Shown: piece by piece, positions 26,595 through 55,194 of the stretch
How positions within the stretch are numbered: the first letter of the stretch is position 1
Layout of the letters: each line of letters begins with the position of its first letter
Notes under the pieces: generated by a model
What the model saw: only the letters and a program-made list of their open reading frames with translations
Told to the model about the DNA's origin: nothing
The model's database searches: none
NCBI GenBank assembly: GCA_963798485.1
Contig: CAWCTR010000017.1
Span: 160,001 to 224,000 of the forward strand
Origin: an uncultured delta proteobacterium
GTDB taxonomy: Bacteria; Desulfobacterota; Desulfomonilia; UBA1062
Length of the DNA stretch: 64,000 nucleotides
Reading direction: 5' to 3'
Position numbers and translations under genes: made by a program

Positions 26595-26976
26595 AACATC
26601 CTCCTAAAAGATGGGACATGGAGAAACGGCATCCTCTTTAATATTCTAATACCGGATGTGCATGATTTCAACAGATCGAGGAACAAGGGAGGTCCTATGG
26701 AGATTAAACCTTGCGGAATCCTCTGTACGGGCAATCATCCCTTTTCAACTGTCGAGCGATTTGGGCACTGGTATTATAGCAGAGGTCAAGACAAAAAAGC
26801 CGGTATACACTCATCAGGGATGAAGTGGTGGTTGTTTACAAAGGATAAAGATCTCGCTGTCAGGACAGCTAAATCACACATAGAATAATTTGACCACAGG
26901 GTGATGATCTCTTTCGGAGAGTATCGGTTCTCAGGCATTTCAAAAAACAATAAGTTATCGCAGGAATCATCATAAG

Positions 26977-27032
26977 GAATAACGTGCTGATCACCGGCAG
27001 CTGTAAGCCGTCCGGTGGATTAAGGGTTAGAC
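26977..27032 (-). mobile_element. Integron attC site 1 (56 bp)
   Basis: Minus strand: R'' GTCTAAC, 5 nt, L'' ATCCACCG, stem, L' CGGTGAT, 6 nt, R' GTTATTC. L'' carries one extra base. The gene stop codon lies in R''. Confidence 0.92.
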
Positions 27033-27975
27033 GGCGCACACGTCCAGATTTGCGATCCCGCCACCCCGAAGCACAACCACTGTTTCTGTTCTGCTGTAGA
27101 TTTGGCGATCCGAAAAGTAAACAGTGCGGCTATTAATAGCTGCAACCTGATTGGTGTTGACCTCGAATCTCGATTGAAGTGGATCTTCGAGTACACCCAA
27201 CAAGGCCTGGCGCGTGTTTAGTGGAAATGAGACTTCGGTGCCAGGCAAACCATAACCGATCGGTCCACGCATGTTTGGGTCCTTGAATATAACCGCCACT
27301 GGATGATCGCATGTCACGAAGTCTGGAGCATCAGTTTCTGCGATGATCAACGACCAATACCGAGTACCGAGCAAGTGGAGTACTTGTTGAAACACTCCTA
27401 GCTCTAATGAGAGGCTATCATTGGTGCTGATTTCAACAGTGTACTGATCGTCCTGTATAAACTTTCTCATTTCTTCGAACGACACGTTAACACCTTCGGG
27501 AACGAAGCCGTTCTTTTTAGACTTAGAAATTTGGTATTCGAAGAGGCGTTGATCCGAGCTAAGTATGCTGCCAATAATGCGTGCCGTATGCTGATGAGCA
27601 GCATTCATAGCTCTCCGACTCTTTGGGTTGCGGACAACAAGCAGCGCCATTAGATTAATAACATAGCTGAACTCCTCGTCAGGAGGCAATTCACCGCTAT
27701 CTCGAATACCTTGAAGGACAGAGCCGGTTCTACCCTCAAACGCACCTAGTGCCTGCTCTAAGGCATCTGGATCTTGACCGTCGATATCTATTCGATTGAA
27801 ATCACGCATGGCAGCAACATTTCTAGGCTTGGTCTGAAATATGGAACCCGACACGAGATCCGATGCATAGAACTGCCCATCTCGAGTTCCATCGTCCGTA
27901 AACCCAGCGAGGTAGACTTGTGGTACAAAATGATGATTTCTAGAGGTCTTTTTCATTGTGTTACTCATAGTCTAA
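26983..27975 (-). mobile_element. Integron gene cassette 1
   Basis: Starts G|TTAGAC, the exact complement of its own R'' GTCTAAC. ATG follows immediately; one ORF plus attC. Confidence 0.9.
27027..27968 (-). CDS. DUF4238 domain protein (cassette cargo)
   Basis: N-terminal HHFVPQVYL, FVTCDHPV, FPLNTRQAL. Confidence 0.85.
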   Translation of the reverse strand: MSNTMKKTSRNHHFVPQVYLAGFTDDGTRDGQFYASDLVSGSIFQTKPRNVAAMRDFNRIDIDGQDPDALEQALGAFEGRTGSVLQGIRDSGELPPDEEFSYVINLMALLVVRNPKSRRAMNAAHQHTARIIGSILSSDQRLFEYQISKSKKNGFVPEGVNVSFEEMRKFIQDDQYTVEISTNDSLSLELGVFQQVLHLLGTRYWSLIIAETDAPDFVTCDHPVAVIFKDPNMRGPIGYGLPGTEVSFPLNTRQALLGVLEDPLQSRFEVNTNQVAAINSRTVYFSDRQIYSRTETVVVLRGGGIANLDVCAV

Positions 27976-28040
27976 CGTATTACTATACTGCACTTTTGCA
28001 GTATATCACCATTGTTATCCGAAGCACAATTGCAGTATAT
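27970..28040 (-). mobile_element. attI-like site and candidate cassette promoter, copy 1
   Basis: Minus strand GTATAGT-AATAC-GTTAGAC (7-5-7). 27979-28040 is identical to 55133-55194. TTGTGC-N18-TATACT with an extended TG. Confidence 0.75.
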
Positions 28041-28078
28041 CCAGATATTGAATGCAAGGTATTATGATGTTATAATAT

Positions 28079-28196
28079 TTAAATCGTTGATTTCGTGCCA
28101 TAGCCCACGGTTTAATATGATGTGTCTTACTGTGTATGTTTCAACCCAAGATCTTCGTTTTTTGAAATCTCAAAACCGACAAGAAATCGCAGTTAT
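28079..28196. repeat. Non-coding ~118-bp repeat, copy 1
   Basis: Aligns nearly gap-free with 55233-55351 and 56650-56765 (TTAAA..CGTGCCA..AAGATC..ATCGCAG). Confidence 0.8.
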
Positions 28197-28523
28197 GTTC
28201 ACCATGAGTAAAGTGACGATTTTGAGTTATAGTCTATGGTGGGTATTAATAAAACTTGGCTTAGTATGTTGGCACAATATCTATTTACATTCCAACATGT
28301 TATTAAATGAGTAAATTTAATTTTAACCCCATCTATTGACTTTCATTGAAGCAGAATTAATTTTTATAAATTAATCTATTAGTTATGCAAATTCTTTGTA
28401 GATACTATCAATAGTTTTTGATGAATAATTATTATCCCAGATTTTTTATTCACTTAGAGGAAAATCATTTACCAGAGGATTGGGATTAAAGAAATTAACT
28501 AATTGGAGAGAAAGGGGGTATCT

Positions 28524-31205
28524 ATGAGGAGAAAAACACGTATAGTTTGTTCAGTGCTGGTAGTTTGCGGGATTCTCACCGCTATTCCTGCAGCGTCCTA
28601 TGTTGTATGGATGTTGGCTGACCTCATGAATGTCGTTTCACCAACACAGCTGCAGACACTCAACTATCATCCTGTCGAGATCGTAGTAAACTTCAAGAAT
28701 GGAGCCATAGCAAATACCTTTACAGCTTCACTCAACGGGCATAATATCACAAGTGAGTTCACGCCTATCCAGGGAGGAGTACATGCCTATGTTACCCCGG
28801 ATGAAGGGCTGAACTGTTACATCATCGGTCAGAATTCGATACTGTCACAGATCAATTTTCTCGCCACGAGTATTCAGGGTAACGGTTATAAGTATGATGT
28901 AAATATCAATGAGTTCAATGTCAAATACTACCCGGTTAAGACAGCTCGGGACAATGTAGGAGTGTGGTTCATAACCGGGGGCGCTCTTGGTGATGTCATG
29001 GAGGCAATGGGGTATGCTGTGGCCACCGACAGGCTGTGGCAGATGGAGACATACCGCCGCACTGCAAGAGGCACACTTGCCGAGATATTAGGGTCATCTT
29101 ATTTATCAAATGATATCGGTGTGCGGACCATCAGCTATACCGATCAGGAACTCTCTGACGGGTTTGATGCCCTGGACAGGGATGCACAGATCGCCATATC
29201 AGAGTATGTAGAGGGTATCAATAAGCGTATCGACAATATCAAGGCAAATCCCTTACTGCTGCCGTTTGAGTTTTTGGCTGTGGGATTCCCACTCAATTAC
29301 ACCCCTGGTTATTGGACCGAAGAAGATATCCTTGCATGGATGTCATTCTTGTTGAGGGACTTCGATTGTGAGGCACTGGAATTTGGTCAGATCCAAAACG
29401 CTGCATTGTTCCAGGCACTGACAACTCAATATGGGGTCGCACAAGGCTACGGTATGTTCAACGACCTCAGGTGGTTAAACGATCCGAGCGCACTCACCTA
29501 TATCCCACCGGTTGCGACAACGGCTATGATGGCAGCCCCGGCCCTTGCTGCTCCCAGTGTCTCTGCCCAAGCACCTGCTATTCAGGGTATTTCGGGTGAT
29601 TTCCAAGGAGCTTATGAAGCCCTGTCTAACCAGAGAGATACCAATATAAATAACCTGAAAAATATCAATGCATTCGTGAAAATGGGGAGTTATGCATGGT
29701 CTATCTCAGGCAAAAAGACCGCGGACGGCAAACCGATTATTTACTCTGGTCCTCAGATGGGGATTACAGTGCCTCCAATCGTGATTGAAGGCTCTATAAT
29801 AGGTGGTGGTCTTACTATATCAGGGATGTCAGTCCCTGGTATCCCCGGCATCATTATCGGCCGGACACCGCATCATGCATGGTCCCAGCAGGTGGGGCAT
29901 GCGCATACGGTTGATTTTTACGTTGAATCTCCTTCGAGTATTACTCTCAACCGTGTGGAGACCATACATGTCGCCGGTCAGCCCGATTACACACTTCCCG
30001 TTTATCGTAGTAAGCATGGGCCGATTGTAAATCAAAGCCCACTACTTTCCTGGAAATACTCCCACTGGGGATATGAATTCAAGACGATCAAGGCGTACTT
30101 GAATCTTGCACGCGCACAGAGCATGGATGACTTCGGCAAGGCTATCGAGGATGTAGCTGTCAGTCAGCACTTCTGTTATGCAGACAAGGACGGGAATATC
30201 GCTTACTGGATGTCAGGCCGCGATCCTGTTAGGCCTGCTGGAGAATGGCGTCTGCCTCAGGGTATGATCGCTCCAGCACTTGAATGGGATGCCTCAGTCC
30301 TTATTCCGCGGTCAACGGATCGCAATAACGCCCAGGGTTATTACTGTGGATGGAACAACAAGAGCAACCCGAGCTACAATGATTCTATCAATAGTCCCGG
30401 CTACTTCTTCGGCCCGTTCGTCAGGGCTCACGTGATCAATGACTACCTTTCCACCAATAACAACCTCACCTATGAAGAGGTTCGGGACCTGGCCCTTTAT
30501 ATTGCTACCACTGATTCTTTTGGCCACGGGGGCATACCGTGGGATTTCGTGTCAGAGGATTTCACAAATGCCGTATTAAATAAGGCTGGAGGACCAAGCA
30601 CTGCTGAAAAGGCAGCCCTCAACCTTCTTTCGGCCTGGGACGGCAACTTTGTCGATGGAGGCCCCTCGGAATGGCGCGAGGGTGTAGACCGTTCCGATGC
30701 CTGGATACTCCAGGATGCCTGGATTCGAGAGGTTTTGAGGCTCACCTTTGCCAATACGCTGCCGTTCTATTTTGATGCCACTAATGATGCGGTAATATTC
30801 CGCCTGTTCAATGTATATCTCCACGCCATGGAAGGTGGCTTTAATAACTATCACTGGTTCCAAGGACAAGACACGAATGGCATCATTGTGACTGCGATTG
30901 ATAATGTACTTAAAAACCTTGGCCCGCAGCCATGGGGTACTGGGAAGCGCGGGGAGATCACGCTTGCAGATAGCTTCTTAGGCGGTACGGTTGTCGACAG
31001 TATACCATACGCTGAACGATCAACGTACGCTCATTGTGTTGAATTCGGTCCGAGCGGTCCCATTCGGATTGAAAGCATGTTCCCGCTCGGGGAATCGCAA
31101 AATATCCTCTTTAATGGCACAGGACCAGTATTCGATCCAAACTTCTTCAGCATGGTACCGATATACGACCCGTTTGAGCCAAGGTCATTCCCACTATTCC
31201 ACTAA
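28524..31205 (+). CDS. Penicillin/AHL acylase family (Ntn hydrolase)
   Basis: MGYAVATDRLWQM...RGTLAEILG, beta-chain start GSYAW, YADKDGNIAY, WNNK. Confidence 0.9.
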   Translation: MRRKTRIVCSVLVVCGILTAIPAASYVVWMLADLMNVVSPTQLQTLNYHPVEIVVNFKNGAIANTFTASLNGHNITSEFTPIQGGVHAYVTPDEGLNCYIIGQNSILSQINFLATSIQGNGYKYDVNINEFNVKYYPVKTARDNVGVWFITGGALGDVMEAMGYAVATDRLWQMETYRRTARGTLAEILGSSYLSNDIGVRTISYTDQELSDGFDALDRDAQIAISEYVEGINKRIDNIKANPLLLPFEFLAVGFPLNYTPGYWTEEDILAWMSFLLRDFDCEALEFGQIQNAALFQALTTQYGVAQGYGMFNDLRWLNDPSALTYIPPVATTAMMAAPALAAPSVSAQAPAIQGISGDFQGAYEALSNQRDTNINNLKNINAFVKMGSYAWSISGKKTADGKPIIYSGPQMGITVPPIVIEGSIIGGGLTISGMSVPGIPGIIIGRTPHHAWSQQVGHAHTVDFYVESPSSITLNRVETIHVAGQPDYTLPVYRSKHGPIVNQSPLLSWKYSHWGYEFKTIKAYLNLARAQSMDDFGKAIEDVAVSQHFCYADKDGNIAYWMSGRDPVRPAGEWRLPQGMIAPALEWDASVLIPRSTDRNNAQGYYCGWNNKSNPSYNDSINSPGYFFGPFVRAHVINDYLSTNNNLTYEEVRDLALYIATTDSFGHGGIPWDFVSEDFTNAVLNKAGGPSTAEKAALNLLSAWDGNFVDGGPSEWREGVDRSDAWILQDAWIREVLRLTFANTLPFYFDATNDAVIFRLFNVYLHAMEGGFNNYHWFQGQDTNGIIVTAIDNVLKNLGPQPWGTGKRGEITLADSFLGGTVVDSIPYAERSTYAHCVEFGPSGPIRIESMFPLGESQNILFNGTGPVFDPNFFSMVPIYDPFEPRSFPLFH

Positions 31206-31234
31206 GAAGTTTTCTTATAGTGCAAATACACTGA

Positions 31235-31264
31235 CCCTGCCCGTACTCCCGGGCAGGGCTTTTT
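31235..31264 (+). terminator. Rho-independent terminator
   Basis: CCCTGCCCG / CGGGCAGGG followed by a T tract. Confidence 0.75.
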
Positions 31265-31477
31265 CTAATATTATTGATCAATCATTAGTCTAAAACTTAT
31301 ATTATCAACTGGATATAAATGAGTGTTTCCCAATTCAGGTGAGATACTGTAGATTACGCAAAAGGATTATTGGTTTTATAAGCATGGAAAAACTATATAG
31401 TTCGTGCCATACACAACGTCCTGCCTATACTGATGATTCCTTTTGAAAATATATATTCTGGCTTATGGGCTAGTAAC

Positions 31478-31999
31478 TCAATCCTTGTTGGCGGCATTGA
31501 CCTTTATCACGTGGAAGGCCTTTTCTAGATCTTGCGGTTTAAGCTCTACCATGAAACCCCTCTTGCCGCCATTGATGAAGATGCGGTCCAGCCCGAATAT
31601 CGTGGACTCTCCATATACCGGCAGCCTTGTACGAGTGCCGAAGGGGCTGATACCGCCTACCATGTAGCCGGTATATCGATTGGCGTCTTTTTCATCACAA
31701 GGCTCAATGTGCTTCACGTTGAGTTCCCGGGCAAGCTGTTTGGTGGAGACCTCACGGTCGCCATGCATGAGCATGATGAAAGGCTTATTATCATCTGGTT
31801 CCATGATCAGGGTCTTGATCACCTGGTGTTCGGGGATGAGAAAATATTCAGATACATGATGGGTGCCGCCATGTTCGACAAAGGGGTAGAGGTGTGGGAT
31901 GAATGCAATCTTTTTGTCCCGCAGCAAACGGATAGCCTGAGTGATCGGGTAGTCCGGCCTTGTCATTGTCTTATCTTGTTGTCCCCTGTCAGATGCCAT
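31478..31999 (-). CDS. ybaK: Cys-tRNA(Pro) deacylase YbaK family
   Basis: VIKTL, TGYMVGGISPFG, INGGKRG. Start may be at 31966. Confidence 0.88.
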   Translation of the reverse strand: MASDRGQQDKTMTRPDYPITQAIRLLRDKKIAFIPHLYPFVEHGGTHHVSEYFLIPEHQVIKTLIMEPDDNKPFIMLMHGDREVSTKQLARELNVKHIEPCDEKDANRYTGYMVGGISPFGTRTRLPVYGESTIFGLDRIFINGGKRGFMVELKPQDLEKAFHVIKVNAANKD

Positions 32000-32066
32000 G
32001 TTCAGGCATCACATCATCCGGAGCAGTGATTAAAGGCTTCGAAGGGCATGGGTTTGAAGAAATGCC

Positions 32067-33497
32067 TCAGCGTGTCTTCACCTGTACATATGTGCTCTGG
32101 GCGCTCCTATGATCCAGGGCCAGCAACACCGTTTCTTGACCGGGCTGGAGCACGCTCACAATCCCGGCGAAGTCCTCCACGCCATGAACCGACTGGCCGT
32201 CTATTTCCAGGATGATATCTCCCAGCTCAAACCCCACTTCCGCCATGGGGCCTTTCGGGTCAAGCCATTTCAGAGCCACACCCATATCGATCCCATAGTT
32301 GTCCGCTTCCTGAGATCTGACAGGTCTTATCTCAATGCCAAGGCGATCTTTAACAACAGTAGAGAGAAATTTCAGGGAGTCATCCATGTCTCCAACCACA
32401 ATTTTGACTGCAAATTCGTTGCTGCCTCGAAGAACAGCCGACTGGAGCGTTGTGCCGATGGGTGTTGTGGCCACCTGGTTTCGCAGTGAGCCCGAGTCTT
32501 TGACCTCTTTGCCGGCTATAGTCATTACAATGTCGCCCTTTTTCAAGCCGGCCTTGTCGGCAGGTCCGTCTTTGACCACATCCACAACAACGGCGCCTGT
32601 GGTCATCTCCAACTTAAGGGACTTCGCCTTTTCCTGGTCCAGGTCCTGGATGGTGACGCCTATCCACCCCCTTTTGACCTTGCCATAAGCAATAAGCGCC
32701 TTCGATATGGCGATGGCGAAATTGCTGGGGATAGCAAAACCGATCCCTTCATATCCCCCGGACTCGGAGGCGATTATCGAGTTGATGCCGATAACCTCCC
32801 CCTTGAGGTTGATGAGCGGGCCCCCGCTATTGCCGGGGTTAATGGCGGCATCGGTCTGGAGGAAGTCCTGGTATGAGCTTGGGTCTGTGATACCCTGGCG
32901 GTGCTTGGCGCTGATAATGCCCTGGGTCACGGTCTGATCGAGTCCTCGAGGGTGGCCGATGGCAACAACCCACTCTCCGACCTCCACCTTGTCGGAGTCG
33001 CCGAACACGACAAAGGGGAGTTTCGATTCAGGGTTAATCTTGATGACGGCAAGGTCGGTCTTAGGGTCTTTCCCTACTATTTTTGCTGCATACTGTTTTC
33101 CGTCAGAGAGGATGACCTTTATATCAGTAGCCTCATCCACGACATGGTTGTTCGTGAGGATATTACCTATCTCGTCAATGATAATACCGGTACCCAGGCC
33201 CCTGAGTTCTCTTTTGAATTTTTTCTGCGCCTGGGGCTGTTCGAAAAATGGGGATTGCTGTGGTTCGGTTGATGGAGAGTATGGTACGACCTGCTGCTGG
33301 GTCACCTCGATGTGCACGACCGATGGGATAGTGGCCTTGGCAATCTGTGTGATGATAACCCTGAGGTCATTCGCGAATACGGGTTTGGGCGATGAGTCCT
33401 GGTTGGGATCGGCGGCGTTCGTTACGCCGGGCAGAAAAGTGACGCCCAAGAGAAGGACGATAATCACCGTAAAACAGGTGCTGCTGTATTTCCCCAT
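32067..33497 (-). CDS. Do/DegP-family serine endoprotease
   Basis: TNNHV, DLAVI, GNSGGP and two PDZ domains. Confidence 0.95.
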   Translation of the reverse strand: MGKYSSTCFTVIIVLLLGVTFLPGVTNAADPNQDSSPKPVFANDLRVIITQIAKATIPSVVHIEVTQQQVVPYSPSTEPQQSPFFEQPQAQKKFKRELRGLGTGIIIDEIGNILTNNHVVDEATDIKVILSDGKQYAAKIVGKDPKTDLAVIKINPESKLPFVVFGDSDKVEVGEWVVAIGHPRGLDQTVTQGIISAKHRQGITDPSSYQDFLQTDAAINPGNSGGPLINLKGEVIGINSIIASESGGYEGIGFAIPSNFAIAISKALIAYGKVKRGWIGVTIQDLDQEKAKSLKLEMTTGAVVVDVVKDGPADKAGLKKGDIVMTIAGKEVKDSGSLRNQVATTPIGTTLQSAVLRGSNEFAVKIVVGDMDDSLKFLSTVVKDRLGIEIRPVRSQEADNYGIDMGVALKWLDPKGPMAEVGFELGDIILEIDGQSVHGVEDFAGIVSVLQPGQETVLLALDHRSAQSTYVQVKTR

Positions 33498-33625
33498 GGA
33501 TAAGACCTCCGATCATATCTGGGCATGCACTGGAATGCATGGCTTTACCTTGCTATGGGAAACATCATAACACTAGGGTGTTCAAAAGCAAGGGGTATAT
33601 GGGCACCGGGCAATAGGCTTTCGGG

Positions 33626-34738: not shown

Positions 34739-34748
34739 AGTGTTCTCC

Positions 34749-35003
34749 TTACATTTTTCTGGGTAATGCCTTCAATGCCTTTATGTACCTGACCTCATTG
34801 AAAGGCCTGCCGGCTTTCAGCATATCATTCATCTCTTTTACTAAAACAAAGGCGATTAATCGCATTGCATCATCGTGATGACGACCTTCACGAATCAACC
34901 TGTCATAGGTGGACTTTGTCTCTTTGGGATTGTTCTTGTCGATCTGATTCTGGATTGTTTCGAACAGTGCCTCTCTCACATACATCTTGTTGTCATTGAC
35001 CAT
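34749..35003 (-). CDS. Small conserved hypothetical protein
   Basis: 84-aa ORF in operon position, with RBS GGGG. The longer upstream extension overlaps the MFS gene. Confidence 0.7.
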   Translation of the reverse strand: MVNDNKMYVREALFETIQNQIDKNNPKETKSTYDRLIREGRHHDDAMRLIAFVLVKEMNDMLKAGRPFNEVRYIKALKALPRKM

Positions 35004-35017
35004 GATATCCCCCGATT

Positions 35018-36220: not shown

Positions 36221-36223
36221 TGT

Positions 36224-36886: not shown

Positions 36887-36905
36887 GGCTTGGCTACGTC
36901 ATCTC

Positions 36906-37796: not shown

Positions 37797-37805
37797 GGAG
37801 TCCTT

Positions 37806-42405: not shown

Positions 42406-44280
42406 TCAGGGTCCCGGCGTCAGTCCAGGTGTAAGTGTCAGCAGGGGATTACCGTCTGCATCGGTCTTGATCAGCAAGGATGCAGCATATCCCGAAGTTG
42501 CACCGCAAATGATATAACCGCCGTCACTGGTCTGGCGGGCAGAACTGAATGAATCAGATGGACTGCTCCCTGAACCATGGTAGGTTTTCTGCCAGAGGGC
42601 TGTCCCGCTTGCATCGGTCTTGATCAACCAGGGTGTATGATAATCAGAGCCTGTATAACCGGCAACGACATATCCACCACTGGTCTGCTGGACAGACTTG
42701 GCCTGGACATAATTACCATCACCGGTGCCGCTGCCGATGAAGGTCCTTATCCCGCCGTTGCCGAAGGCGGTATCCAGGTTTCCATTTGCATCGGTCTTGA
42801 TCAGCAAGGCATCATTACCACCTGAACCTTTGAAGCTTTCACCCGCCATGATATACCCGCTATCCGTGGTCTGCTGGACGGAAAAGGCTGTGCCTCCACT
42901 GGCGCCGGCACCGTTGAAGGTTTTATTCCAGCTCATAGTACCGTCTGCATCGGTCTTGATCAGCCATGCCTGTGTTCCCGTAGATACCGTGGTTGAACCT
43001 GCCATGATATATCCGTTATCCGTGGTCTGCTGGACGGAAAAGGCTGTGCCTCCACTGGCGCCGGTAATGGTGAAGGTTTTAGTCCAGCTCACAGCACCGG
43101 CTGTATCGGTCTTGATCAGCCATGCCTGTGTTCCCGTAGATACCGTGGTTGAACCTGCCAGAACATACCCGCCGCTTATTTGCTGGACGCAGTAGGCGTA
43201 AGCAGAACCGGAACTGCCGCTGGGAAATGTTTTCATCCCAGCTGTGCCGAATGATGTGTCTAAATTTCCATTTGCATCGGTCTTGATCAGCAAGGCTGCC
43301 GTATATTGGGCATTGTTAGCCGATAACGGTGTAGTATCACCAGCCACGATATAACCGCCGTCACTGGTCGGTTGGACAGAGGCAGCGCTATCATTGCTTG
43401 TGGCACCGCCTAAGGTTTGATTCCAGACCACGGTTCCAAACTCATCGGTCTTGATCAGCGAGACCGCCGTATGACCGGAAGCGGCTGAGGTGGTTGAACC
43501 TGCTATGACATAATCGCCGTCACTGGTCTGTATCACCGATTGGGCACCGCCGGCAGTGGCGCTGAAACTCGTTATCCAATTTAATATAATGGTGATATTG
43601 ACCGTAGCGGTGGCCGTGCCGCCGTAGAGATCCGTGACCTGGTAGACAAAGCTGTCGCTTATGTAGTTTTTCCCATCGTTCGTGTAGCTGAAGGTGCCGT
43701 CTGGATTAAGGGTAAGCTTGCCGTGGCTCTGCGGCGTTACCGGGGTCGTGTTCACGGTCATGCTTACCCCTTCAGGGTCGGTGTCGTTCGTCAGCACGTT
43801 CCCGGTTGTTAAACCGCCCTGACTCACCGAGACATTATCATTGGCCGCAACCGGCGGGAGCTCTTGATCGGATCTGGAAACCTCTATTACGCCGAGGTCC
43901 ACCGTCTGCCCGGCTACGACGGTGATGTTCGTTTTTTTCCCTGACAGCACCACCGTGCCCGAGGCGTTCTTGAGGTTGATGATTAAGGACCTGTTCGTTC
44001 CCGGTTTTACCCCTGAGACCGTCCCTTGGCCCGCGGTGCAATCCCATGGCCCGCCTTGGGCGATAGGCGAGTTGTTCTCATCGAATGTCTGTGCTTCAAC
44101 CGTGGCGATTTGCCATTCAGTGCAGGAGATTGGAGCTGTATTGTCTTGCGTATTTGCAAGTTGCGCGGATGATTGTTTATGAGGTGCATGAAGGGTGAAG
44201 GAGACAGAACCTGTGCTTGGGCCTGATGATTTGCCGGAACTGCTGCACGAGCAGAGAAGCAGGATAAAACAGAAAAACAA
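42406..44280 (-). CDS. Lipoprotein with Ig-like (tandem-95/Big_9-type) domain and beta-propeller repeats; start uncertain, possible 5' frameshift
   Basis: LCSC lipobox-like motif, PVAANDN...NVLTNDTDPEG...DGTFSY, repeated QQTxDxGYxxAG...LIKTD units. Confidence 0.8.
   Translation of the reverse strand: MFFCFILLLCSCSSSGKSSGPSTGSVSFTLHAPHKQSSAQLANTQDNTAPISCTEWQIATVEAQTFDENNSPIAQGGPWDCTAGQGTVSGVKPGTNRSLIINLKNASGTVVLSGKKTNITVVAGQTVDLGVIEVSRSDQELPPVAANDNVSVSQGGLTTGNVLTNDTDPEGVSMTVNTTPVTPQSHGKLTLNPDGTFSYTNDGKNYISDSFVYQVTDLYGGTATATVNITIILNWITSFSATAGGAQSVIQTSDGDYVIAGSTTSAASGHTAVSLIKTDEFGTVVWNQTLGGATSNDSAASVQPTSDGGYIVAGDTTPLSANNAQYTAALLIKTDANGNLDTSFGTAGMKTFPSGSSGSAYAYCVQQISGGYVLAGSTTVSTGTQAWLIKTDTAGAVSWTKTFTITGASGGTAFSVQQTTDNGYIMAGSTTVSTGTQAWLIKTDADGTMSWNKTFNGAGASGGTAFSVQQTTDSGYIMAGESFKGSGGNDALLIKTDANGNLDTAFGNGGIRTFIGSGTGDGNYVQAKSVQQTSGGYVVAGYTGSDYHTPWLIKTDASGTALWQKTYHGSGSSPSDSFSSARQTSDGGYIICGATSGYAASLLIKTDADGNPLLTLTPGLTPGP
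42847..43160. repeat. Intragenic 156-bp tandem duplication
   Basis: Near-identical blocks 156 nt apart, e.g. CGGTCTTGATCAGCCATGCCTGTGTTCCCGTAGATACC at 42951 and 43107. Confidence 0.85.
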
Positions 44281-45333: not shown

Positions 45334-45642
45334 GCCAATATACGCCCCTTTGGGATAAAAGCTTGGTTTATTATAGAGTGAATGCCGTCAATGTCAAGCA
45401 GGCCTGTTTCTTCCTGGCTCAAGCATAGGAAATGGTTTCACTCCGTCTTGCCTCATGTCGGTACGAAGGGTATTGCAGGGGACAGGGCAAGGGTTTCAGG
45501 GAATGACGGCAAAGAAACAATCAATAAAGTCCTGAACGGGTTGAAAGGGGTTTGTTGTATATGAAGGAACGGCAACAGGTCATGGATTCGGTTCCCGGAG
45601 AGCTCCGCGAGATCGTGATCTTGTATCACCCTTTCATATTTC

Positions 45643-47909: not shown

Positions 47910-47915
47910 CTGTTA

Positions 47916-48029
47916 TCAACCCTTGAGGCTCAGTGCCGCATGGATGAAGGCATCCGGGTTTTCCGCAGGGGTTTCGAGTGGTAGGTCGCAGAGCGATGAA
48001 AGGATGAAGGGGACGCCTTTTACACCCAT
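47916..48029 (-). pseudogene. C-terminal remnant of a UroD/MtaA-family gene
   Basis: Translates to MGVKGVPFILSSLCDLPLETPAENPDAFIHAALSLKG; compare GFILAGGCEIPANSRPENLKAMI in 51989-53191. Confidence 0.7.
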
Positions 48030-48031
48030 GT

Positions 48032-48673
48032 TCACACCGCCTTGCAGTAGGAGGTGAAGATCCGCAACGCATCGATGGCGGTCTCACCGTAGGCGTCGGC
48101 CCCCATCTCCCGGCACAGGGCCTCCGAGGTGCAGGCCCCTCCGATAACAATCTTCATGGCATCCCGCAGGCCCGCCTTTGTGCTCATATCCGCCACGTCG
48201 CGGATGCTCCCCACCATGGTGGTGAGCAGGGCGGAGAGCCCTATGAACTTTGTGCCCGTTGCCGTTGCCGTTTCTATGATCTTTTGTGCAGGCACGTCCA
48301 CCCCCAGGTCGATGACCTCGAACCCGTTGGCGGATAAGATCATGCCTACGATGTTCTTGCCGATCTCGTGAATGTCTCCGGCCACCGTTGCCAGGATAAC
48401 CTTGCCTCGCAGGCTTGCTTCATCAGGGTTCATGCGTGACTTGAGAAGGGGCATGGCCTCCTTCACGACCTCGCCTGCCATGATGAGGTCTGCCAGGAAA
48501 TACTCCCCTTCCTCGAACTTGCGGCCCACGGTCGCCAGGCCTTTGCTGATGCCCTCCTGGATGATGATCTCAGGGGCAAGACCTTCTTCCAGGCATTTAG
48601 CCACAAGGGCGCTGACCCCGTCGATGTCCAGTTCGTCTATGGCCTTCTGTACCGCCAGGATGGATTCGTTCAT
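48032..48673 (-). CDS. Corrinoid (B12-binding) protein
   Basis: VGRKFEEGEYFL cap, GDIHEIGKN, GLSALLT, IGGA. Confidence 0.93.
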   Translation of the reverse strand: MNESILAVQKAIDELDIDGVSALVAKCLEEGLAPEIIIQEGISKGLATVGRKFEEGEYFLADLIMAGEVVKEAMPLLKSRMNPDEASLRGKVILATVAGDIHEIGKNIVGMILSANGFEVIDLGVDVPAQKIIETATATGTKFIGLSALLTTMVGSIRDVADMSTKAGLRDAMKIVIGGACTSEALCREMGADAYGETAIDALRIFTSYCKAV

Positions 48674-49863
48674 TGAGCAGCCTCCTTGGGTGCGGTTTCA
48701 AGTGATATGGGGTATGCCCCGTACCGGCTTACCGCGTCCACCATGACCTCGAGCTTGCGGGCCGGTATGGAGCTCAGGCTGTGGACCGGGGCGATGATGA
48801 ACCTGCCGCCCGGGCCCAGTCCGGTGATAAGCCTCTTGACCTCTTCTTCCACCTCCTGGTCCTTCGAGCGGTCCGTGAGCAGATAGTCCACCCCCACGCC
48901 GCCGATGATGGTGACCGCCTCCCCATGGAGCTTTTTCTCCCTGAAGATGTCCACGTTGGAGGTATTTTCGTAGGCGTGCAGACCGTCCACACCCCAGGAG
49001 ATGAAGGTGTCGAAGAGCAGGGTGTTGTCGCCGCAGGAGTGGAGTACATATTTGCCTTTGCGGTCGTGCACGGCCTTGATGATGCGCCGGTAAGGCCCTC
49101 CGAAGAGTTCGTCGATGATTTTCGGGTTCATGATGGGTCCGCTCTTGAAGGCGAAGTCGTCGGTCTGGATGATGACCGGCACTCCAGCGTCTAAGAGCGC
49201 CATATTTGTCTTGAGACAGATCTCCTCGTTGAGGTCGATGTAGCGCTTCACCAGGTCCTTTTCCCGCCTGATCCATACGGGCATCTTCTCGAAACCCACT
49301 GCCCACAGGAGCGACTCCTGGATACCGTAGGCTGGGCCCTGGCCGAAGAGGCAGGTCCGCTGCCCGTAATCGTATACGACCTTTTTGAAGAAGGTGTAGG
49401 TTCTCTGCGCCACATCGTCGGCATCGGGCCAGTAGGGCCAGGCCTCGAAGTCCTCCCTGCTCTTGATGCCCGGGCCCCGGTACATGTAGGTCATGTTGCC
49501 ATACCCGTCGGGCTGGATGTTGAACACAGAGCCGTTGAAGCGGACCATAGTGGTGTGGTTGAGCACGGTAAAGGTCTCGTCCAGGATCGCCCACACCGAG
49601 TCGAAACCCAGTTCTACCTGTGCCCTGATGCGCTTCATGAGCGCCCGGTTCAGCTCTCTCTGAAATATTGGCCTGGTGATCAGGGGCCCCCACCGGTCCA
49701 GCACGAACCGGGCCACAGGGTTGGTCATGAGCAGTTCCTGGGATATGAGCGGCTTCCCGAGAACCTCATTGAAGGTCCGGTCCTCCACCATGGCGCAGAA
49801 GGTAGGGACCCGGTCCGTTGGTTTCCCGTCCAAGGCATAAAGTGCGCGATCTATCGGGTGCAT
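48670..49863 (-). CDS. Uroporphyrinogen decarboxylase/MtaA-family methyltransferase
   Basis: DRVP start, DDFAFKSG, LHSCG, GGRFIIAPVH. Confidence 0.85.
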   Translation of the reverse strand: MHPIDRALYALDGKPTDRVPTFCAMVEDRTFNEVLGKPLISQELLMTNPVARFVLDRWGPLITRPIFQRELNRALMKRIRAQVELGFDSVWAILDETFTVLNHTTMVRFNGSVFNIQPDGYGNMTYMYRGPGIKSREDFEAWPYWPDADDVAQRTYTFFKKVVYDYGQRTCLFGQGPAYGIQESLLWAVGFEKMPVWIRREKDLVKRYIDLNEEICLKTNMALLDAGVPVIIQTDDFAFKSGPIMNPKIIDELFGGPYRRIIKAVHDRKGKYVLHSCGDNTLLFDTFISWGVDGLHAYENTSNVDIFREKKLHGEAVTIIGGVGVDYLLTDRSKDQEVEEEVKRLITGLGPGGRFIIAPVHSLSSIPARKLEVMVDAVSRYGAYPISLETAPKEAAQ

Positions 49864-49876
49864 GAAGGACTCCTCC

Positions 49877-50752
49877 TCAAATCCTCTCAAGTGTCTTCTT
49901 TATCTCGATGATGAAGGACCGGTCCGACCCGCAGCAGCCGCCGATGAAGTTCGCACCGGCCTTTACGAGTTCAGGGACGAAGCTGGCAAAGTCATGGGCG
50001 GTTGTGTGGTACACGACCTGTCCCGCCACCCTCTCGGGCAGCCCGGCGTTCGCCTTCATCCACAGGGGCAACTCGGTTGCGGCGCGCATGCGGGAGCAGA
50101 TGGGAATGAACCCCTCGATTCCCTGCCCGCAGTTGGCGCCGAGGACGTCCGCCCCTGCCTGAGAGAGGACCTCTACGGCCTGTTCCGGCGTATTGCCCAT
50201 CATAGTGCGGTCCTTCATTTTACCCGCTGCAAAGACCAGGCAGGCGACGACCGGGAGCCCGGTCTTCTTGGCGGAGGCAACGGCTATGCGCGCCTCAGCG
50301 AGGTCCATCATGGTCTCCACCACGATAGCGTCGGCCCCGGAGACGGCTATGGCCCGGGCCTGCTCTTCAAAGGCTTGGGCCAAGTCGGTCTCGGTCACCT
50401 CTTTTACGGCCAGGAGCTTGCCGGAAGGGCCCATGGATGCGAACACGAAAGCCTTGCTTCCGGCTGCCCGGCGGGAGATCTCCACGCCCGCGATGTTTAT
50501 CTCCCTGACTTTATCGGCCTGGCCGAACTTGCCAAGTACATAGCGGTTGGCCCCGAAGGTGTTGGTCAGGATGACCCGGCTGCCGGCATCCACGTATTCC
50601 TTTGCCACCTCCTGGACCTTGTCCGGGTGGGTGAGATTCCACGTATCAGGTGATTCGCCGGGCTTCAGGCCGCGTTTGATTATCTGCGTGCCCCAGGAAC
50701 CATCCGTCAGGACGGGTCCGTCCTTGATGAGCTCGGCGATGAAAGCATGCAT
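49877..50752 (-). CDS. Homocysteine S-methyltransferase domain protein (stand-alone MetH N-domain)
   Basis: DGSWGT, TNTFGAN, GANC, ANAGLP, GGCCG. Confidence 0.92.
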   Translation of the reverse strand: MHAFIAELIKDGPVLTDGSWGTQIIKRGLKPGESPDTWNLTHPDKVQEVAKEYVDAGSRVILTNTFGANRYVLGKFGQADKVREINIAGVEISRRAAGSKAFVFASMGPSGKLLAVKEVTETDLAQAFEEQARAIAVSGADAIVVETMMDLAEARIAVASAKKTGLPVVACLVFAAGKMKDRTMMGNTPEQAVEVLSQAGADVLGANCGQGIEGFIPICSRMRAATELPLWMKANAGLPERVAGQVVYHTTAHDFASFVPELVKAGANFIGGCCGSDRSFIIEIKKTLERI

Positions 50753-51285
50753 GGTTTTCTCCTTATCGAGAAAGATCTCGTGTGAAACACGCAATGCTAT
50801 TGAGAGCACCTTTTTGAGAATGAGTCCCTTTTGATCTAAACTATACCCGGCCCAGCGTCAATCTCAACTGTGATGGCGGGTATGGATTACTTAGGCCGGT
50901 TCTACAGGTTTGTGGTGTATTTATCCCGAATTTAACCGACCTATTAAAAACAATTCCATGGAGTTTTATGCTTAAGGCCACCTGAAGTGGTTAGAGTATT
51001 CATATGTATCAGCTATAATTTGATCTTAGAAATGAAACCCGGCACTAAATTAAAATATGTCAATGTGCTCTTTTGCTTATTGATAAAAAGTCAAGATAGC
51101 GTGCCAAGATATACACTATTATAGTTACTGATAAATTGTTAAGATATCTCATGAGGATCATAAAAAGGGTAAAAGGTCTGGGGAATAAAAGATGAATATT
51201 GTAGGCCTTATGGAATTACATGTGTCTTGCAGGATGTGCTATCTTTAGTAATTCAGGAGCACTATTCAATAGAGGAGGAGCAGTA

Positions 51286-51933
51286 ATGGCAAGTGGCAAG
51301 GAGGTCTTTGACGGATTCCGGGAGATGTTCTTCTCCTTCAATCTGGATAGGATTACTGCGGAGACGGATCGACTTCTCAAGTCAGGTTGTTCGCCCCAGG
51401 ATTTTCTTCTTGTGTGCCAGCAGTGCATGGAGGAGGTCGGAAAGAAGTTCGAAGCCGGCGACTATTTTCTGCCCGAGCTGGTTATGGCCGGGGAAATATT
51501 CAAGCAGGTGAGCTTCTCGATCAAACCATACTTCAAGGACGGTGATGGTCAAAAACATCTTGGGACAATCGTTATCGGAACTCCCAAAGGTGATATCCAC
51601 GCCTTGGGGAAGGATATTTTCTGTGTCCTGGCAGAAGCGGCCGGTTTTATCGTCCACAACCTGGGAGAAGACGTCCGCCCTGAGAGTTTTATCGACAAGC
51701 TGAAAGCCACCGGCGCATCGATCCTCGGCATGTCGGCATTGATCACCACTACATATCATTCCATGGCCCAGGTCATAGAGCTGCTCAAAGAGAATGGCAT
51801 GCGTGACGACGTCAAGGTGGTGATCGGCGGAGGGGCGACCTCAAAAGACCTGGCGGAAAAGATCGGAGCCGACGCCCAGACCTGGGATGCCTATGAAGGC
51901 ATCCGGATCATTCAATCGTTTGCGGGTGTCTAA
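51286..51933 (+). CDS. Corrinoid (B12-binding) protein
   Basis: VGKKFEAGDYFLPEL, GDIHALGK, GMSALIT; RBS GGAGG. Confidence 0.92.
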   Translation: MASGKEVFDGFREMFFSFNLDRITAETDRLLKSGCSPQDFLLVCQQCMEEVGKKFEAGDYFLPELVMAGEIFKQVSFSIKPYFKDGDGQKHLGTIVIGTPKGDIHALGKDIFCVLAEAAGFIVHNLGEDVRPESFIDKLKATGASILGMSALITTTYHSMAQVIELLKENGMRDDVKVVIGGGATSKDLAEKIGADAQTWDAYEGIRIIQSFAGV

Positions 51934-51988
51934 GCCTGGAACGTATTCATTTTCATGATTTATATTCCTTGTGCATGGTGAGGACCGT

Positions 51989-53191
51989 ATGCAGAGAAAA
52001 AGGATGCTTTATAAAAAAGACCGGATGACAGCCGACGAAAGGCTTGCAAAGGTCATTCAATGCGAAGAGCCTGATCGCGTGCCGGTTTCCATGATGATCT
52101 ATTACTATGCCCCCTACCACACCGGCACCAGCATGGGTGAATACCTGAGAAACCCTGCAACGTACCAGCAGGTGATGCATAAGGTTTATGAAGATCTCGG
52201 CCCATGGGACATCTACTACAACATCAATCCCTACTCACGCCTGGTTTACACCTTCGTGATGATGATGCGTTCGCTCTGGCCGGGAGTTGAACTGCCTTTA
52301 GATGATGTCGTGCAGACGGAGGAAATCGAATATATGCACCCGGAGGATTATGACGAGATCCTAAGAGGTTCATCGCTTAGCGTAAAACTCTGGGGTGACA
52401 TCCTTTTCCGTTTAAAGATGCTCCAACGCTTCAGCCAAGACGCCAAAGGGTACAGCCTTCCGCGATTAACGCTGAAAGTGATTACGGGATTGCTGCATCA
52501 GATTGTCTTCTGCCGGCGCGACTTCAAGTGGTGGGAGAGTCAGGGCCTGGCGGTTCAAATCGGTTATCAGGCTGAAATGCCGTTCGATACCTTTTCTCAG
52601 GGCAGGAATGTCATCAACTTCTCCAAAGACCTGTTCTCGGTGCCTGATAAGATTGGGAAGGCAGCCACCCAGCTTGCTCACGGGTATGCAACGTTTTCGA
52701 TCCTCACGGCAAAGTACCTCATGGGCGTCCCCAGGGTGCAATTGTACCTGCACCGAACATCGAATAGCTTCATCTCGCCACGGCATTTTGAAAACCTGGC
52801 CTTCCCCAGTATGGAGATCATCGTCAACCGACTTGTCGATGCCGGAATCACACCGATCCTGCATTGTGACGGCGACTGGCTGAAGAACCTTAAAATTCTG
52901 CGACGCCTTCCTGCTAAGAAATGTGTCCTGCAGCTTGACGGCCTGACCGATATTTTCCGCGCCAAGGAAGAGATCGGGGATCATATGTGCATTTTTGGTG
53001 ATGTATCCGCCTCACGGCTGGTGATGGGCAGCCCGCAAGAAGTGGATGAATATTGCCACCGCCTGATTGAACAGGTTGGTAAAGGCGGAGGATTCATCTT
53101 GGCCGGTGGTTGTGAAATCCCGGCCAATTCACGTCCGGAAAATCTCAAGGCCATGATAAACTCGGTATATAAATACGGCTACTATCACTGA
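51989..53191 (+). CDS. Uroporphyrinogen decarboxylase/MtaA-family methyltransferase
   Basis: EPDRVP, LHCDG, GDV, GGFILAGGCEIP...PEN. Confidence 0.87.
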   Translation: MQRKRMLYKKDRMTADERLAKVIQCEEPDRVPVSMMIYYYAPYHTGTSMGEYLRNPATYQQVMHKVYEDLGPWDIYYNINPYSRLVYTFVMMMRSLWPGVELPLDDVVQTEEIEYMHPEDYDEILRGSSLSVKLWGDILFRLKMLQRFSQDAKGYSLPRLTLKVITGLLHQIVFCRRDFKWWESQGLAVQIGYQAEMPFDTFSQGRNVINFSKDLFSVPDKIGKAATQLAHGYATFSILTAKYLMGVPRVQLYLHRTSNSFISPRHFENLAFPSMEIIVNRLVDAGITPILHCDGDWLKNLKILRRLPAKKCVLQLDGLTDIFRAKEEIGDHMCIFGDVSASRLVMGSPQEVDEYCHRLIEQVGKGGGFILAGGCEIPANSRPENLKAMINSVYKYGYYH

Positions 53192-53484
53192 CCCCGGCGC
53201 ATGTGGACAGCCGGGCGGGTCAATGGGCTCAGTAAAAATATCTCCTTAAGATCCAAGCACCCCTATAAACGGAAGAGATCATAGATTTCTATAAGGGATC
53301 TCATTGGCTCAAATGATAAAGATCGTTCCACTATATGTACTTTGATATGAGATATCTCCAAGTATAGATTACATCTGAGAACATATATTTTTCGGCCCAT
53401 CTTGAAAGCGATTATTTATCTATGAGATCAATGGTTATTCTTTCAGCAATAGGACTGATGAGTTATCGCAGGAATCATCATAAG

Positions 53485-53545
53485 GTATAACGGGACGCAT
53501 CAGCCTCGCGGGCGGCACGCCCGCGTCCGCCTGAATGGGTTAGCT
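53485..53545 (-). mobile_element. Integron attC site 3 (61 bp, partly degenerate)
   Basis: Minus strand: R'' AGCTAAC, L''-like ATTCAGGC, GC stem CGCGGGCG/CGCCCGCG, R' GTTATAC. R'' complements the cassette start GTTAGCT. Confidence 0.8.
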
Positions 53546-53564
53546 AATCTTCAATGGTTTTTTA

Positions 53565-54167
53565 TTATGAGAGCAAGACTCCTGCAAGTTGAACCAGAAA
53601 AGCTAGTATTAGAAGACCCGGCCCTAGCTTTGATAAGAAAACCTGCCACTTCCCAACTGATTTCTTTTCCTCTTTTGGATTGCCAATCCACGGAATGACT
53701 GGTGCTCCCTTTTCTGTATAAAATTGAATACGTGGTGGATAATAGAACATTAAAGCAGCTGATATTATACCAAGTCCTAATCCGAGCAAGGTTAAAGCCT
53801 TTGATATAGTTATCTGTGAAATTCCAGATACTGAATGGGCTTGAAATTGAGATGGAATTGGTCTTTTTATTTCCAGCCTTTGTTGTAATACAGATTGCTT
53901 TTGAATATTCCAAGGAATTTGATTTGATTTAAATGTATAATTGGATAGTACAAACAGAATGATCATTACAATAATTCCTATAATCGCTGAAATTGCCGCA
54001 ATCTTGCTCCACTTAATAGTTTCTATTATTTGTTCTTTTTCTTTTATTTCTCTTTTTGAGAGTGCTTCTAATGCAGGTTTATGAAAGTGGTGGGGGCTTG
54101 GAAAATTCTTTAAGATTTCTTGTAATTCTGCTTTTGATTTATTTTCAAAATCTGGAGGTTCATTCAT
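53565..54167 (-). CDS. Hypothetical membrane protein (cassette 3, about 53491-54188)
   Basis: AT-rich ORF with 3 hydrophobic segments, between attC2 and attC3; RBS GGAG. Confidence 0.7.
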   Translation of the reverse strand: MNEPPDFENKSKAELQEILKNFPSPHHFHKPALEALSKREIKEKEQIIETIKWSKIAAISAIIGIIVMIILFVLSNYTFKSNQIPWNIQKQSVLQQRLEIKRPIPSQFQAHSVSGISQITISKALTLLGLGLGIISAALMFYYPPRIQFYTEKGAPVIPWIGNPKEEKKSVGKWQVFLSKLGPGLLILAFLVQLAGVLLS

Positions 54168-54182
54168 TAAATTCTCTCCAGA

Positions 54183-54230
54183 AGCTAACGCGCAGGTAAG
54201 CGGCTTGTCCGCTTGACCTGCTGGTTAAGC
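54183..54230 (-). mobile_element. Integron attC site 2 (48 bp)
   Basis: GCTTAAC, 5 nt, GGTCAAGC, GGACAAGCC, GCTTACC, 5 nt, GTTAGCT. Extra C in L''; the gene stop lies in R''. Confidence 0.9.
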
Positions 54231-55112
54231 TTCATGGCTGCCCCTTTGTCCTTTACGAATTGCATTCTTGTATGCTCCGCACTGCTCTTTAATTGGGCAA
54301 GGTGTCGCATAATGAATTGACAAGCAAGTGCCACTATGCCTAGTCAGCGGCAGAACAGGGTCAATTGAGCGCATATAGCCCAACCCAGTGAAAAACCCGC
54401 ACAAGGTTATTGTTGTCTCCAAGGGAAGTGTTGTGTAAAAGAACTCAAAAACATTGTGCTGTAATTGCAAAGTATTTTTGTAGACCTCATTAATGTACTC
54501 TACAAAATCAGCGATGACTAAACAGCGTGCTTCGGTGCCTAAGCCTCTATGCATATACGATACTTTCCCTGTTTTATCGTCCTTACTGCAGCTGCCCAAA
54601 CTACCATGAGTAAACTCGGTTCGATACTTGCGAAGCTGAAGAAACCAATTATCATATGACTCAGCAAATAGCGCATTTAGTTCGACAGGAAAATATTTAC
54701 CGTACTTATTATTTTTAGCCTTCGAAAAAAGTTTGCTCGTTGATTTTTTCTGGACACCTTCTATAGAAGAGTAAACTGCATAAATCACATCTCTAATTCC
54801 GTATAAGGCTGCGTATAACTCGTTTATGCAGCACTCAGCTATTGCAGAGAATTGCCGCGAATATTTGGCATGAGTATGACCTTTCTCATTCATTTCCTTT
54901 CTATCAAAATCAAATCCACCAATTAATTCATTCCCGATTTCTGCTAATACGCGGAATTTATCAAGATGATCAGAGGTAGCACTAATTCCTCTTTTAAATA
55001 TTTTGTTCCCTTCCAATAATGCATACTTAAATTTTCCGAATCTATCGACCGCATCCCATTCCTCAGGCGCGAATACTAGTAAAAAAGCATCATGTCCTGC
55101 TACTTTTTTCAC
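54225..55112 (-). CDS. Hypothetical protein with HEPN-like RxxxxH motif (cassette 2, about 54189-55133)
   Basis: Helical protein with LRKYRTEFTHG and a Cys-rich tail; RBS GAGGAG before a GTG start. Confidence 0.7.
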   Translation of the reverse strand: MKKVAGHDAFLLVFAPEEWDAVDRFGKFKYALLEGNKIFKRGISATSDHLDKFRVLAEIGNELIGGFDFDRKEMNEKGHTHAKYSRQFSAIAECCINELYAALYGIRDVIYAVYSSIEGVQKKSTSKLFSKAKNNKYGKYFPVELNALFAESYDNWFLQLRKYRTEFTHGSLGSCSKDDKTGKVSYMHRGLGTEARCLVIADFVEYINEVYKNTLQLQHNVFEFFYTTLPLETTITLCGFFTGLGYMRSIDPVLPLTRHSGTCLSIHYATPCPIKEQCGAYKNAIRKGQRGSHEA

Positions 55113-55127
55113 AGCACTCCTCTATGG

Positions 55128-55194
55128 ACTTAATTACTATACTGCACTTTTGCAGTATATCACCATTGTTATCCGAAGCACAATTGCAGTATAT
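55128..55194 (-). mobile_element. attI-like site and candidate cassette promoter, copy 2 (4-bp deletion at the junction)
   Basis: 62-bp identity with 27979-28040. Junction reads GTATAGTAA-TTAAGT versus GTATAGTAATACG-TTAGAC in copy 1. Confidence 0.72.

Follow-up and report, generated by a model that had tools for sequence, protein, structure and literature searches.

The usual picture of an integron has a single integrase, a single attI and a single array, and it is against this picture that two small cassette arrays in the genome of an uncultured delta proteobacterium (assembly GCA_963798485.1) are described here. They lie at about 27 kb (locus 1) and about 54 kb (locus 2) of a 64,000-nt stretch of contig CAWCTR010000017.1 (positions 160,001 to 224,000; the whole of this stretch is hereafter called the window), and both are headed by the same 62-bp block, which a first-pass annotation made from the sequence had taken for an attI-like docking module. 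Among the closest described counterparts are attC clusters that have no integron integrase (CALINs), which, in the available text of Cury et al. (2016), are defined by their attCs alone, the attI being unknown for most integrons and normally not searched for; according to the same text, 95% of CALINs have no intI pseudogene nearby, and loss, rearrangement or secondary-site insertion may produce them. CALINs are also said, in the accessible part of a Xanthomonas study (PMC12444791), to be mobilisable in trans. As the attI that belongs to them is usually unknown, CALINs have mostly been treated as debris.

The reading favoured here, to which we would give a probability of roughly 0.65, is that the copies of this block standing apart from any integrase gene (“orphan” copies) are attI platforms without intI that would be loaded in trans. 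On this reading, the 62-bp block is the conserved core of an approximately 105-nt integron attachment site, platform A, which holds, in order towards the cassettes, an outward promoter-like site (in the place of Pint), two direct-repeat boxes (GATATAC...), an L box GTATAGT, a spacer of 4–5 nt and the crossover G|TT, as well as a promoter-like site facing the cassettes. Within the genus, this platform occurs beside intI in complete integrons and also, in numerous copies that have no integrase gene, at unrelated positions of the chromosome, some of these orphan copies at least deriving from an integron whose intI was deleted; each of them would have its own attC cassettes at the core, which would be inserted and exchanged by attC x attI recombination with IntI made elsewhere in the genome (from three intI genes on other contigs) and transcribed from the platform’s own promoter. 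In the portion available of a preprint (10.64898/2026.03.17.712381), IntI provided in trans is reported to let an engineered attI take up cassettes, and the notion of a distributed, trans-loaded integron is, on the evidence set out below, plausible and partly supported.

Repeat A and Its Copies

In what follows, G000 is the genome under study, in which the window is C17:160001-224000 on a contig (C17) of 308 kb; other G numbers denote relatives (G002, G003, G007, G008, G009, G011 and G012 being congeners), and L numbers denote A loci in relatives. Reading and comparing both loci upheld the upstream identity that had been claimed for them, 27979-28040 and 55133-55194 agreeing at 62 of 62 positions. 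Past this core, the two loci can still be aligned for about 155 bases (22/31, 22/31, 24/31, 28/31 and 18/31 in successive 31-nt bins, i.e., 58–90% identity per bin further out), and they have no cassette in common. The shared region resolved, in a whole-genome search, into two independent repeats: A, of about 105 nt and holding the 62-nt block, and B, of about 110 nt. Both window copies of A are on the minus strand, copy 1 at 27979-28085 (identical core 27979-28040, L box GTATAGT at 27982-27988, 9+4+9 palindrome at 27985-28006) and copy 2 at 55133-55237 (identical core 55133-55194), and the two upstream direct repeats of the first-pass annotation are indeed found, at 27996-28006 and 28030-28040.

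That the platform had been copied around the genome was borne out as well, since there are eight A copies in G000 (the two on C17 and those at C7:126733, C21:218299, C21:192381-192442, C24:40148-40213, C13:35000-35047 and C24:60693-60787) and three copies of a second attI lineage, A2. Among 60 relatives surveyed, A was present in 7 of the 14 other genomes of the genus (with up to 14 matches each), in 3 of 22 from other genera of the family and in 0 of 24 from the neighbouring family. A scan of G000 for the strict core motif GTATAGT[AT]AT-N1-2-GTT gave 7 occurrences as opposed to 2 and 2 in two controls; three of these seven are A2 cores (C7:190363, C7:262388 and C11:14960), a lineage sharing 19–20-nt stretches at 95% with the intI-adjacent attI of G012.

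Conservation of A stops sharply at ...GTATAGTAAT, after which there usually come TG|TT plus RRRY, a ribosome-binding site and ATG, and the boxes containing TATAC show, judging by sequence, the arrangement expected of L, R and direct repeats, which is conserved across lineages. The promoter-like site facing the cassettes, GTGATA-16-TATAGT (9/12), takes the same place in both loci (28009-27982 and 55163-55136), and the outward-facing one at locus 1 reads TTGAAT-17-TATAAT (28048-28076, plus strand); both are pattern matches from a consensus scan only, the total of which per region is not above that of shuffled sequences. A was also considered as the attC of the genus, and this was ruled out: as a single strand, it forms only a 9-bp hairpin without R''/R' pairing (z -1.27 and -1.93; 23 and 7 of 200 shuffled sequences formed an equally good fold) and has nothing like the long stem of an attC.

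Kinship with the attI of Complete Integrons

The TIGR02249 profile gave 22 matches in G000, of which the three above the cut-off were taken as intI (C5:12795-13733, C19:228-1175 and C12:6524-7471, the last two near-identical), and it is contigs C5, C12 and C19 that hold the complete integrons of this genome. Separately from this, it may be recorded that C19 and C12 agree at 99.5% over 1.5 kb of intI and flanks, which could be strain heterogeneity, duplication or assembly redundancy. Across the genus, intI is present in 8 of the 15 genomes, G000 included. In G008, what separates the intI start codon from the first cassette is a copy of A (88% over 42 nt and 94% over 18 nt; the site ends ...GGTATAGTTATTG|TTATGCG), whereas in G007 and G012, whose attI sites beside intI end ...CTGTATAGTAATCG|TTATGCGG and ...CTGTATAGTAATTG|TTATCTGC, respectively, it is the A core GTATAGTAAT(T/C)G|TT that terminates the site, as GTATAGTAAT(C/T)G|TTAT. 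An alignment of intI-adjacent and orphan versions yields a common plan, in which a variable spacer separates a box (G)(T/A)TAT(A/G)C from the GTATAGTAAT(T/C)G|TT that follows it. Because the same repeat sits between intI and the first cassette in G008, A is a true attI by position, a reading that is strongly supported, and the “attI-like” label initially given to the block is right in the strict sense.

A place directly upstream of intI is thus taken by the homologous block in G008 and by the core in G007 and G012, and by neither of the window copies. The description of the sites as integrase-less stands for the window and for the whole of C17, but not for the genome, given the three intI genes on other contigs: tblastn found no IntI-like sequence in the window at E<=1 (save for one spurious match of 18 aa) or on C17 at E<=0.1, and none of the 22 TIGR02249 matches of G000 falls on C17, so that intI and attC cassettes do not occur together at either window locus. 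Within 1.5 kb of A, no IntI was found at 30 fetched loci, the only match there being a Xer-like gene that is itself cargo.

Junctions and Cassettes

The cargo of both loci is entirely on the minus strand, along which locus 1 passes from platform to cassette as ...GTATAGTAATACG|TTAGAC (in short, ...AGTAATACG|TT) and locus 2 as ...GTATAGTAA|TTAAGTCC (in short, ...AGTAA|TT, then AAGT). Since TTAAG at the locus-2 junction matches R'' GCTTAAC of the adjoining cassette 2b, the crossover of locus 2 has to be placed 4 nt further upstream, at A|TT. The claim that both loci had been entered at the same position is therefore incorrect by these 4 nt, and the single empty site rebuilt from them has to be given up, as the two reconstructed empty sites differ for this very reason. 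The 7-5-7 geometry described at the outset applies to the locus-1 variant (and to L060), but not to most A copies, in which GTATAGT-AATT-GTT... makes it 7-4-7. The downstream flank is, as reported, alike at 30 of 31 positions (26953-26983 and 53461-53491), yet it cannot be counted as part of the platform: it lies outside the repeated unit, its only two full copies in G000 are at these two loci (they are also the only exact copies among the 15 genomes of the genus), and it resembles the start of repeat B. On the minus strand, it consists of the rest of the R box, G|TTATTCC, followed by TTATGATGATTCCTGCGATAAC (reminiscent of the start of a diverged B) at array 1, and of G|TTATACC followed by TTATGATGATTCCTGCGATAAC at array 2.

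Sequence reading and DNA folding agree with the earlier opinion that the three cassettes of the window, all on the minus strand, are genuine, each of them ending in a real attC. Cassette 1 (26983-27975, 993 nt) starts with G|TTAGAC and carries an open reading frame (ORF; 27027-27968) for a DUF4238 protein (Pfam DUF4238, 2.1e-36; PADLOC “DUF4238-Pers”, 7.2e-40), and its attC (26977-27032, 56 nt) has R'' GTCTAAC, the exact complement of the 5' core GTTAGAC, R' GTTATTC and, in folds, an inner hairpin. Cassette 2b (54189-55133), the one joined to A at A|TT (...AGTAA|TTAAGT), encodes a protein of 295 aa (ORF 54225-55112) with no family match and no PADLOC match, and ends in a 48-nt attC (54183-54230; R'' GCTTAAC, R' GTTAGCT) with a DNA fold of -14.5 kcal/mol (z -3.96). 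Cassette 2a (53491-54188) encodes a predicted membrane protein of 200 aa (ORF 53565-54167) with no PADLOC match and with weak Pfam matches, below the curated cut-offs (DUF6249 and DUF2207_C), and in its 61-nt attC (53485-53545; R' GTTATAC), R'' AGCTAAC complements the cassette start GTTAGCT. None of the 14 other genomes of the genus has DNA matching the gene body of cassette 1, and the gene bodies of the other window cassettes had no match elsewhere in the genus either. Nevertheless, the last 39 nt of the cassette 1 attC are 95–97% identical to array attCs of G012, G007 and G008 (a few kb from the intI genes in the latter two), which places the window cassettes in the same pool as the integron cassettes of the genus.

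For a wider survey of junctions, 47 A copies (8 of them in G000 and the other 39 in relatives) were inspected with 120 to 3000 nt of downstream sequence each. GTT stands within a few bases of the A end in 27 of them, and behind 14 of these 27, an attC was found whose R'' complements the junction core (exactly so in 13), as compared to 159 of 1080 (14.7%) for random cores; counted here was a downstream hairpin-forming site starting with the complement of the junction core with at most one mismatch, and the null consisted of 40 random cores per copy. What would be expected at an attI, i.e., G|TT, a cassette start TTRRRY and a complementary R'', is thus present at locus 1 (G|TTAGAC and GTCTAAC) and in those 14 of the 27 family copies, locus 2 showing the A|TT variant, a junction form shared by five or six of the 47 copies (that on C7 included). 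In G000 itself, verified attC cassettes follow four of the eight A copies: C17a (one attC), C17b (two), C21a (at least two) and the C7 copy (attC at C7:125631-125695). The C13 copy has G|TT as well, and its contig ends 819 nt later; behind each of the three A2 copies, there is a cassette whose attC matches. The main attC family, written as a regular expression, had 43 matches in G000 and 7 in a reversed-genome control, while custom genome-wide attC scans were dropped, as the strict version missed the attCs of the window itself and the faster one gave 665 matches, mostly false.

Two further loci are worth mentioning in their own right. At C24:40148-40213 and at C12:7637-7674 of G007 (L105), an A copy without GTT adjoins one and the same resident gene in both species (...TATAATAAA|TGGCCG...), and the platform may have become fixed there as an ordinary promoter. 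An array without integrase and with at least four attCs, at C5:85000-88431, corresponds in its position to A copies of G007 and G011 (L050 and L061), and at the head of this array, only a core-like ...ATATAGTTATT... is left in G000.

Remnants of intI and the Question of Relics

In every complete integron of the genus, the intI stop codon is directly followed by about 200 nt of conserved sequence, a segment that begins with a small hairpin (...CCGTCCCATAAGGGTGG...). The same segment, mostly together with the last ~25 nt of intI, is found 60–110 nt from the far end of A at C21a in G000, at its orthologue L051 in G011, at L065 and L071 in G007 and at L072 in G002. A profile of it detects only five places in G000, three of which are the complete integrons (C5:13723-13898, C19:1165-1380 and C12:6319-6534), the other two adjoining A (C21:218445-218680) and an A2 core (C7:190010-190178). 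Because the end of intI, the segment behind it or both have remained, these five orphan copies are integrons that lost intI by an almost exact deletion. Judged by eye, the sequence of the deletion junction looks alike at three loci (C21a/L051, L065 and L071/L072), the first cassettes of which all differ, and this likeness suggests one deletion and then a spread of the platform without intI. The opposition between a dispersed module and “decayed integrons”, which the first-pass annotation had drawn, is hence only half right: at least some orphan copies are decayed integrons, and copies of the platform are nonetheless dispersed, so that the platform, it seems, first lost intI and multiplied afterwards. 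Beside the window copies of A, where repeat B occupies the side in question, tblastn found no intI remnants, and the nhmmer profile of the post-intI segment, applied to see whether repeat B is related to it, found nothing on C17.

These remnants are also what makes the most serious alternative attractive, namely, that the orphan arrays are relics and nothing else: decayed integrons, deprived of intI and scattered through duplication and rearrangement, with cassettes loaded while the integrase was still adjacent and no loading in trans today. Integrase loss and rearrangement are named as likely origins of CALINs in the available text of Cury et al. (2016), intI remnants adjoin several orphan copies, and L065 occupies the very place at which contigs C19 and C12 of G000 carry intI in a complete integron (86% over 1.5 kb). 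G002 fits the same picture: its genome, rated 100% complete, shows no intI at E<=1e-60 and has 14 A matches, at least four of which come with cassettes. It follows that orphan arrays are able to persist where no integrase resides, and they may be relics.

The relic explanation, however, has to account for a cargo that changes where the platform does not. If the deletion junction is indeed shared by the three loci mentioned (a judgement by eye), the deletion preceded the dispersal, yet the first cassettes all differ. At the window loci, identical flanks enclose unrelated cassettes, in line with the original statement that different copies hold different cargo, which the distinct attC cassettes behind other A copies likewise support. 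G000, G002 and G011 share an orthologous locus, that of the C7 copy, with flanks conserved on both sides and three unrelated cargos (about 2.97, 2.93 and 1.35 kb). Furthermore, a cassette of 2,677 bp, which carries a Xer-like tyrosine recombinase and an IS91-like transposase and ends in an attC of 132 nt, is present in two copies of 99.8% identity, one at C5:9947-12623, in the first position of the C5 integron, and the other at C21:215619-218295, directly behind the orphan copy C21a; the identity stops at the attC G|TT, and the junction of this cassette was found again behind an A copy in G003 (L099). All of this makes an origin as mere relics unlikely, in our opinion, although it should be taken more seriously than any other alternative.

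For the window loci themselves, synteny was of little help: at locus 1, the penicillin-amidase neighbour is 84% identical to its G002 orthologue, but the upstream side in G002 is unrelated, and at locus 2, the neighbouring gene led to one orthologue, without a platform. No joints across the cassette of locus 1 were seen in contigs from two low-depth freshwater-sediment metagenome runs, the depth of which is too thin to show excision, and the loose ends of such contigs at 27979 and 28065-28075 come from other A copies.

Several observations weigh against the idea of attI platforms loaded in trans, apart from what G002 tells. The attC junction test is a loose one, as its background of 14.7% indicates, GTT is missing at the junction in 20 of the 47 A copies, and the junction of locus 2 is A|TT where the canonical form is G|TT. 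Neither GTT nor attC was seen at three of the G000 copies (C21b, C24a and C24b), which have the appearance of ordinary promoter regions belonging to resident genes, and two congeners, G009 and G012, have intI and no A match. The IS91-like cassette could have reached both of its sites by means of its own transposase; IS91 elements target GAAC. Lastly, as the G000 assembly consists of 32 contigs with an estimated contamination of 6.96%, linkage of the intI contigs to C17 is not proven, and it is not certain that they come from one cell.

A different thought is that A itself is mobile, as a gene-less, promoter-bearing mini-cassette whose 3' half (GGATAAC, spacer, 9-bp palindrome, spacer, G|TT) would serve in recombination as a short site of the attC-like or attI type; the unit would spread as a circle and supply whatever lies behind it with a promoter. 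In this half, G|TT is indeed preceded by an R''-like GGATAAC and by a perfect 9+4+9 palindrome, GTT is seen (by eye) at the 5' edge of the conserved region in about 12 of 27 aligned copies, and cassettes with attI-derived sites in place of attC, recombined by IntI1, are described in the accessible portion of one study (PMC12901181). The fold, on the other hand, is that of a 9-bp hairpin alone without R''/R' pairing (z -1.3 and -1.9), the AAC of the putative R'' is altered in several copies, A is never preceded by a recognisable attC, and the intI remnants offer a simpler origin, all of which renders a mobile A quite improbable. As for chance insertion of cassettes at ordinary GTT triplets downstream of a duplicated promoter (attG-type secondary sites), IntI can insert cassettes at genomic non-att sites according to the available part of one report (10.1101/2022.09.11.507474), but the site here is homologous to a true attI, the same one or two positions are reused in dozens of copies across species and the strict core motif exceeds both of its controls, so this can practically be dismissed.

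Should the attI platforms without intI be loaded in trans as proposed, a further-reaching conclusion offers itself, which we put forward tentatively and with the odds somewhat against it: that an attI/promoter platform has escaped intI and become a dispersed module (at least 11 copies of two attI lineages here and up to 14 matches in congeners), providing genome-wide, expression-ready docking sites that a few integrases would serve in trans and that would together make up a truly distributed integron, with the platform possibly spreading itself as an attI-bearing unit via integrase-mediated recombination.

Repeat B and Other Features of the Window

Repeat B, about 110 nt long, is found dispersed in intergenic positions, and G000 has some 15 further copies of it that are matched independently of A. 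Next to A copy 1, it extends over 28086-28215 (found in the genome search, in which query positions 108-224 matched about 15 other places; repeat families D6 and D9), and next to A copy 2, over 55238-55365 (from the repeat search and the comparison of the loci). A third copy at ~56620-56790 (family D6) is followed at ~56790-56830 by what looks by eye like a degenerate remnant of the A 3' end (minus strand), and this remnant, joined directly to B, may be a dead or empty A-B junction. Since the ends of B look like inverted copies of GATGATTCCTGCGAT, their appearance suggests an element resembling a miniature inverted-repeat transposable element; no match to B was found in Rfam.

Another multi-copy repeat, of about 200 nt (C7:126834-127100, C13:34529-34743 and at least six other places), lies at the far side of the C7 and C13 copies of A, and several A copies of relatives have it on that side too. 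Elsewhere in the window, a 624-aa ORF on the minus strand (42406-44280) is made up of ~156-nt tandem repeats (families D1-D8). The whole window had no Rfam match at the gathering threshold, and a tRNA and tmRNA scan of it found none.

Comparison with Known Systems

Set beside the attI of a complete integron with its Pc and Pint promoters, platform A is alike in its homology to the intI-adjacent site of congeners, in the G|TT crossover, in the single orientation of the cassettes and in having promoter-like sites facing both ways. It differs in having no adjacent intI, in being present in eight A and three A2 copies in one genome instead of one, and in some of its junctions being A|TT. Moreover, the first direct repeat (DR1) and the L box of A form a perfect palindrome that is missing in the intI-adjacent versions. 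The layout, with an inverted L/R core and two direct-repeat boxes, would resemble the four-box layout of attI1.

With respect to CALINs, locus 2 qualifies as one, having two attCs (53485-53545 and 54183-54230) and no integrase nearby, whereas locus 1, with only one attC, stays below the default threshold and is thereby left outside the definition. Unlike arrays recognised by attCs alone, however, the arrays described here start with a recognisable, conserved, multi-copy attI and a promoter-like site, and could thus also recruit and express cassettes; for CALIN annotation, it would be worth searching for lineage-specific attI repeats of this kind. Insertions at attG sites share with these loci the single or few cassettes outside a complete integron and next to a promoter, but an attG is a non-att genomic site, whereas here, an attI homologue has been reused many times. 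The Xanthomonas integrons with an inactivated intI, in the part of that study available (PMC12444791), are similar in that the integrase has decayed and the array has been retained, and differ in that there is one ancestral locus per genome there, as opposed to a platform without intI at many loci here.

No description of multi-copy orphan attI platforms was found in the literature searched (supplementary files were outside its scope and one query was noisy), which is not proof of their absence. If the sites are active, the first-position, expressed slots for cassettes would be multiplied many-fold, and the capture of cassettes would be uncoupled from the location and copy number of intI. Such a state of affairs would, if true, change how the capacity of integrons and the origin of CALINs are to be read, and would provide a natural system for recruitment in trans. 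What sets these loci apart from both the known integron and the known CALIN is that the attI can be recognised, is conserved, has promoter-like sites and stands, at many loci, at the head of many small arrays.

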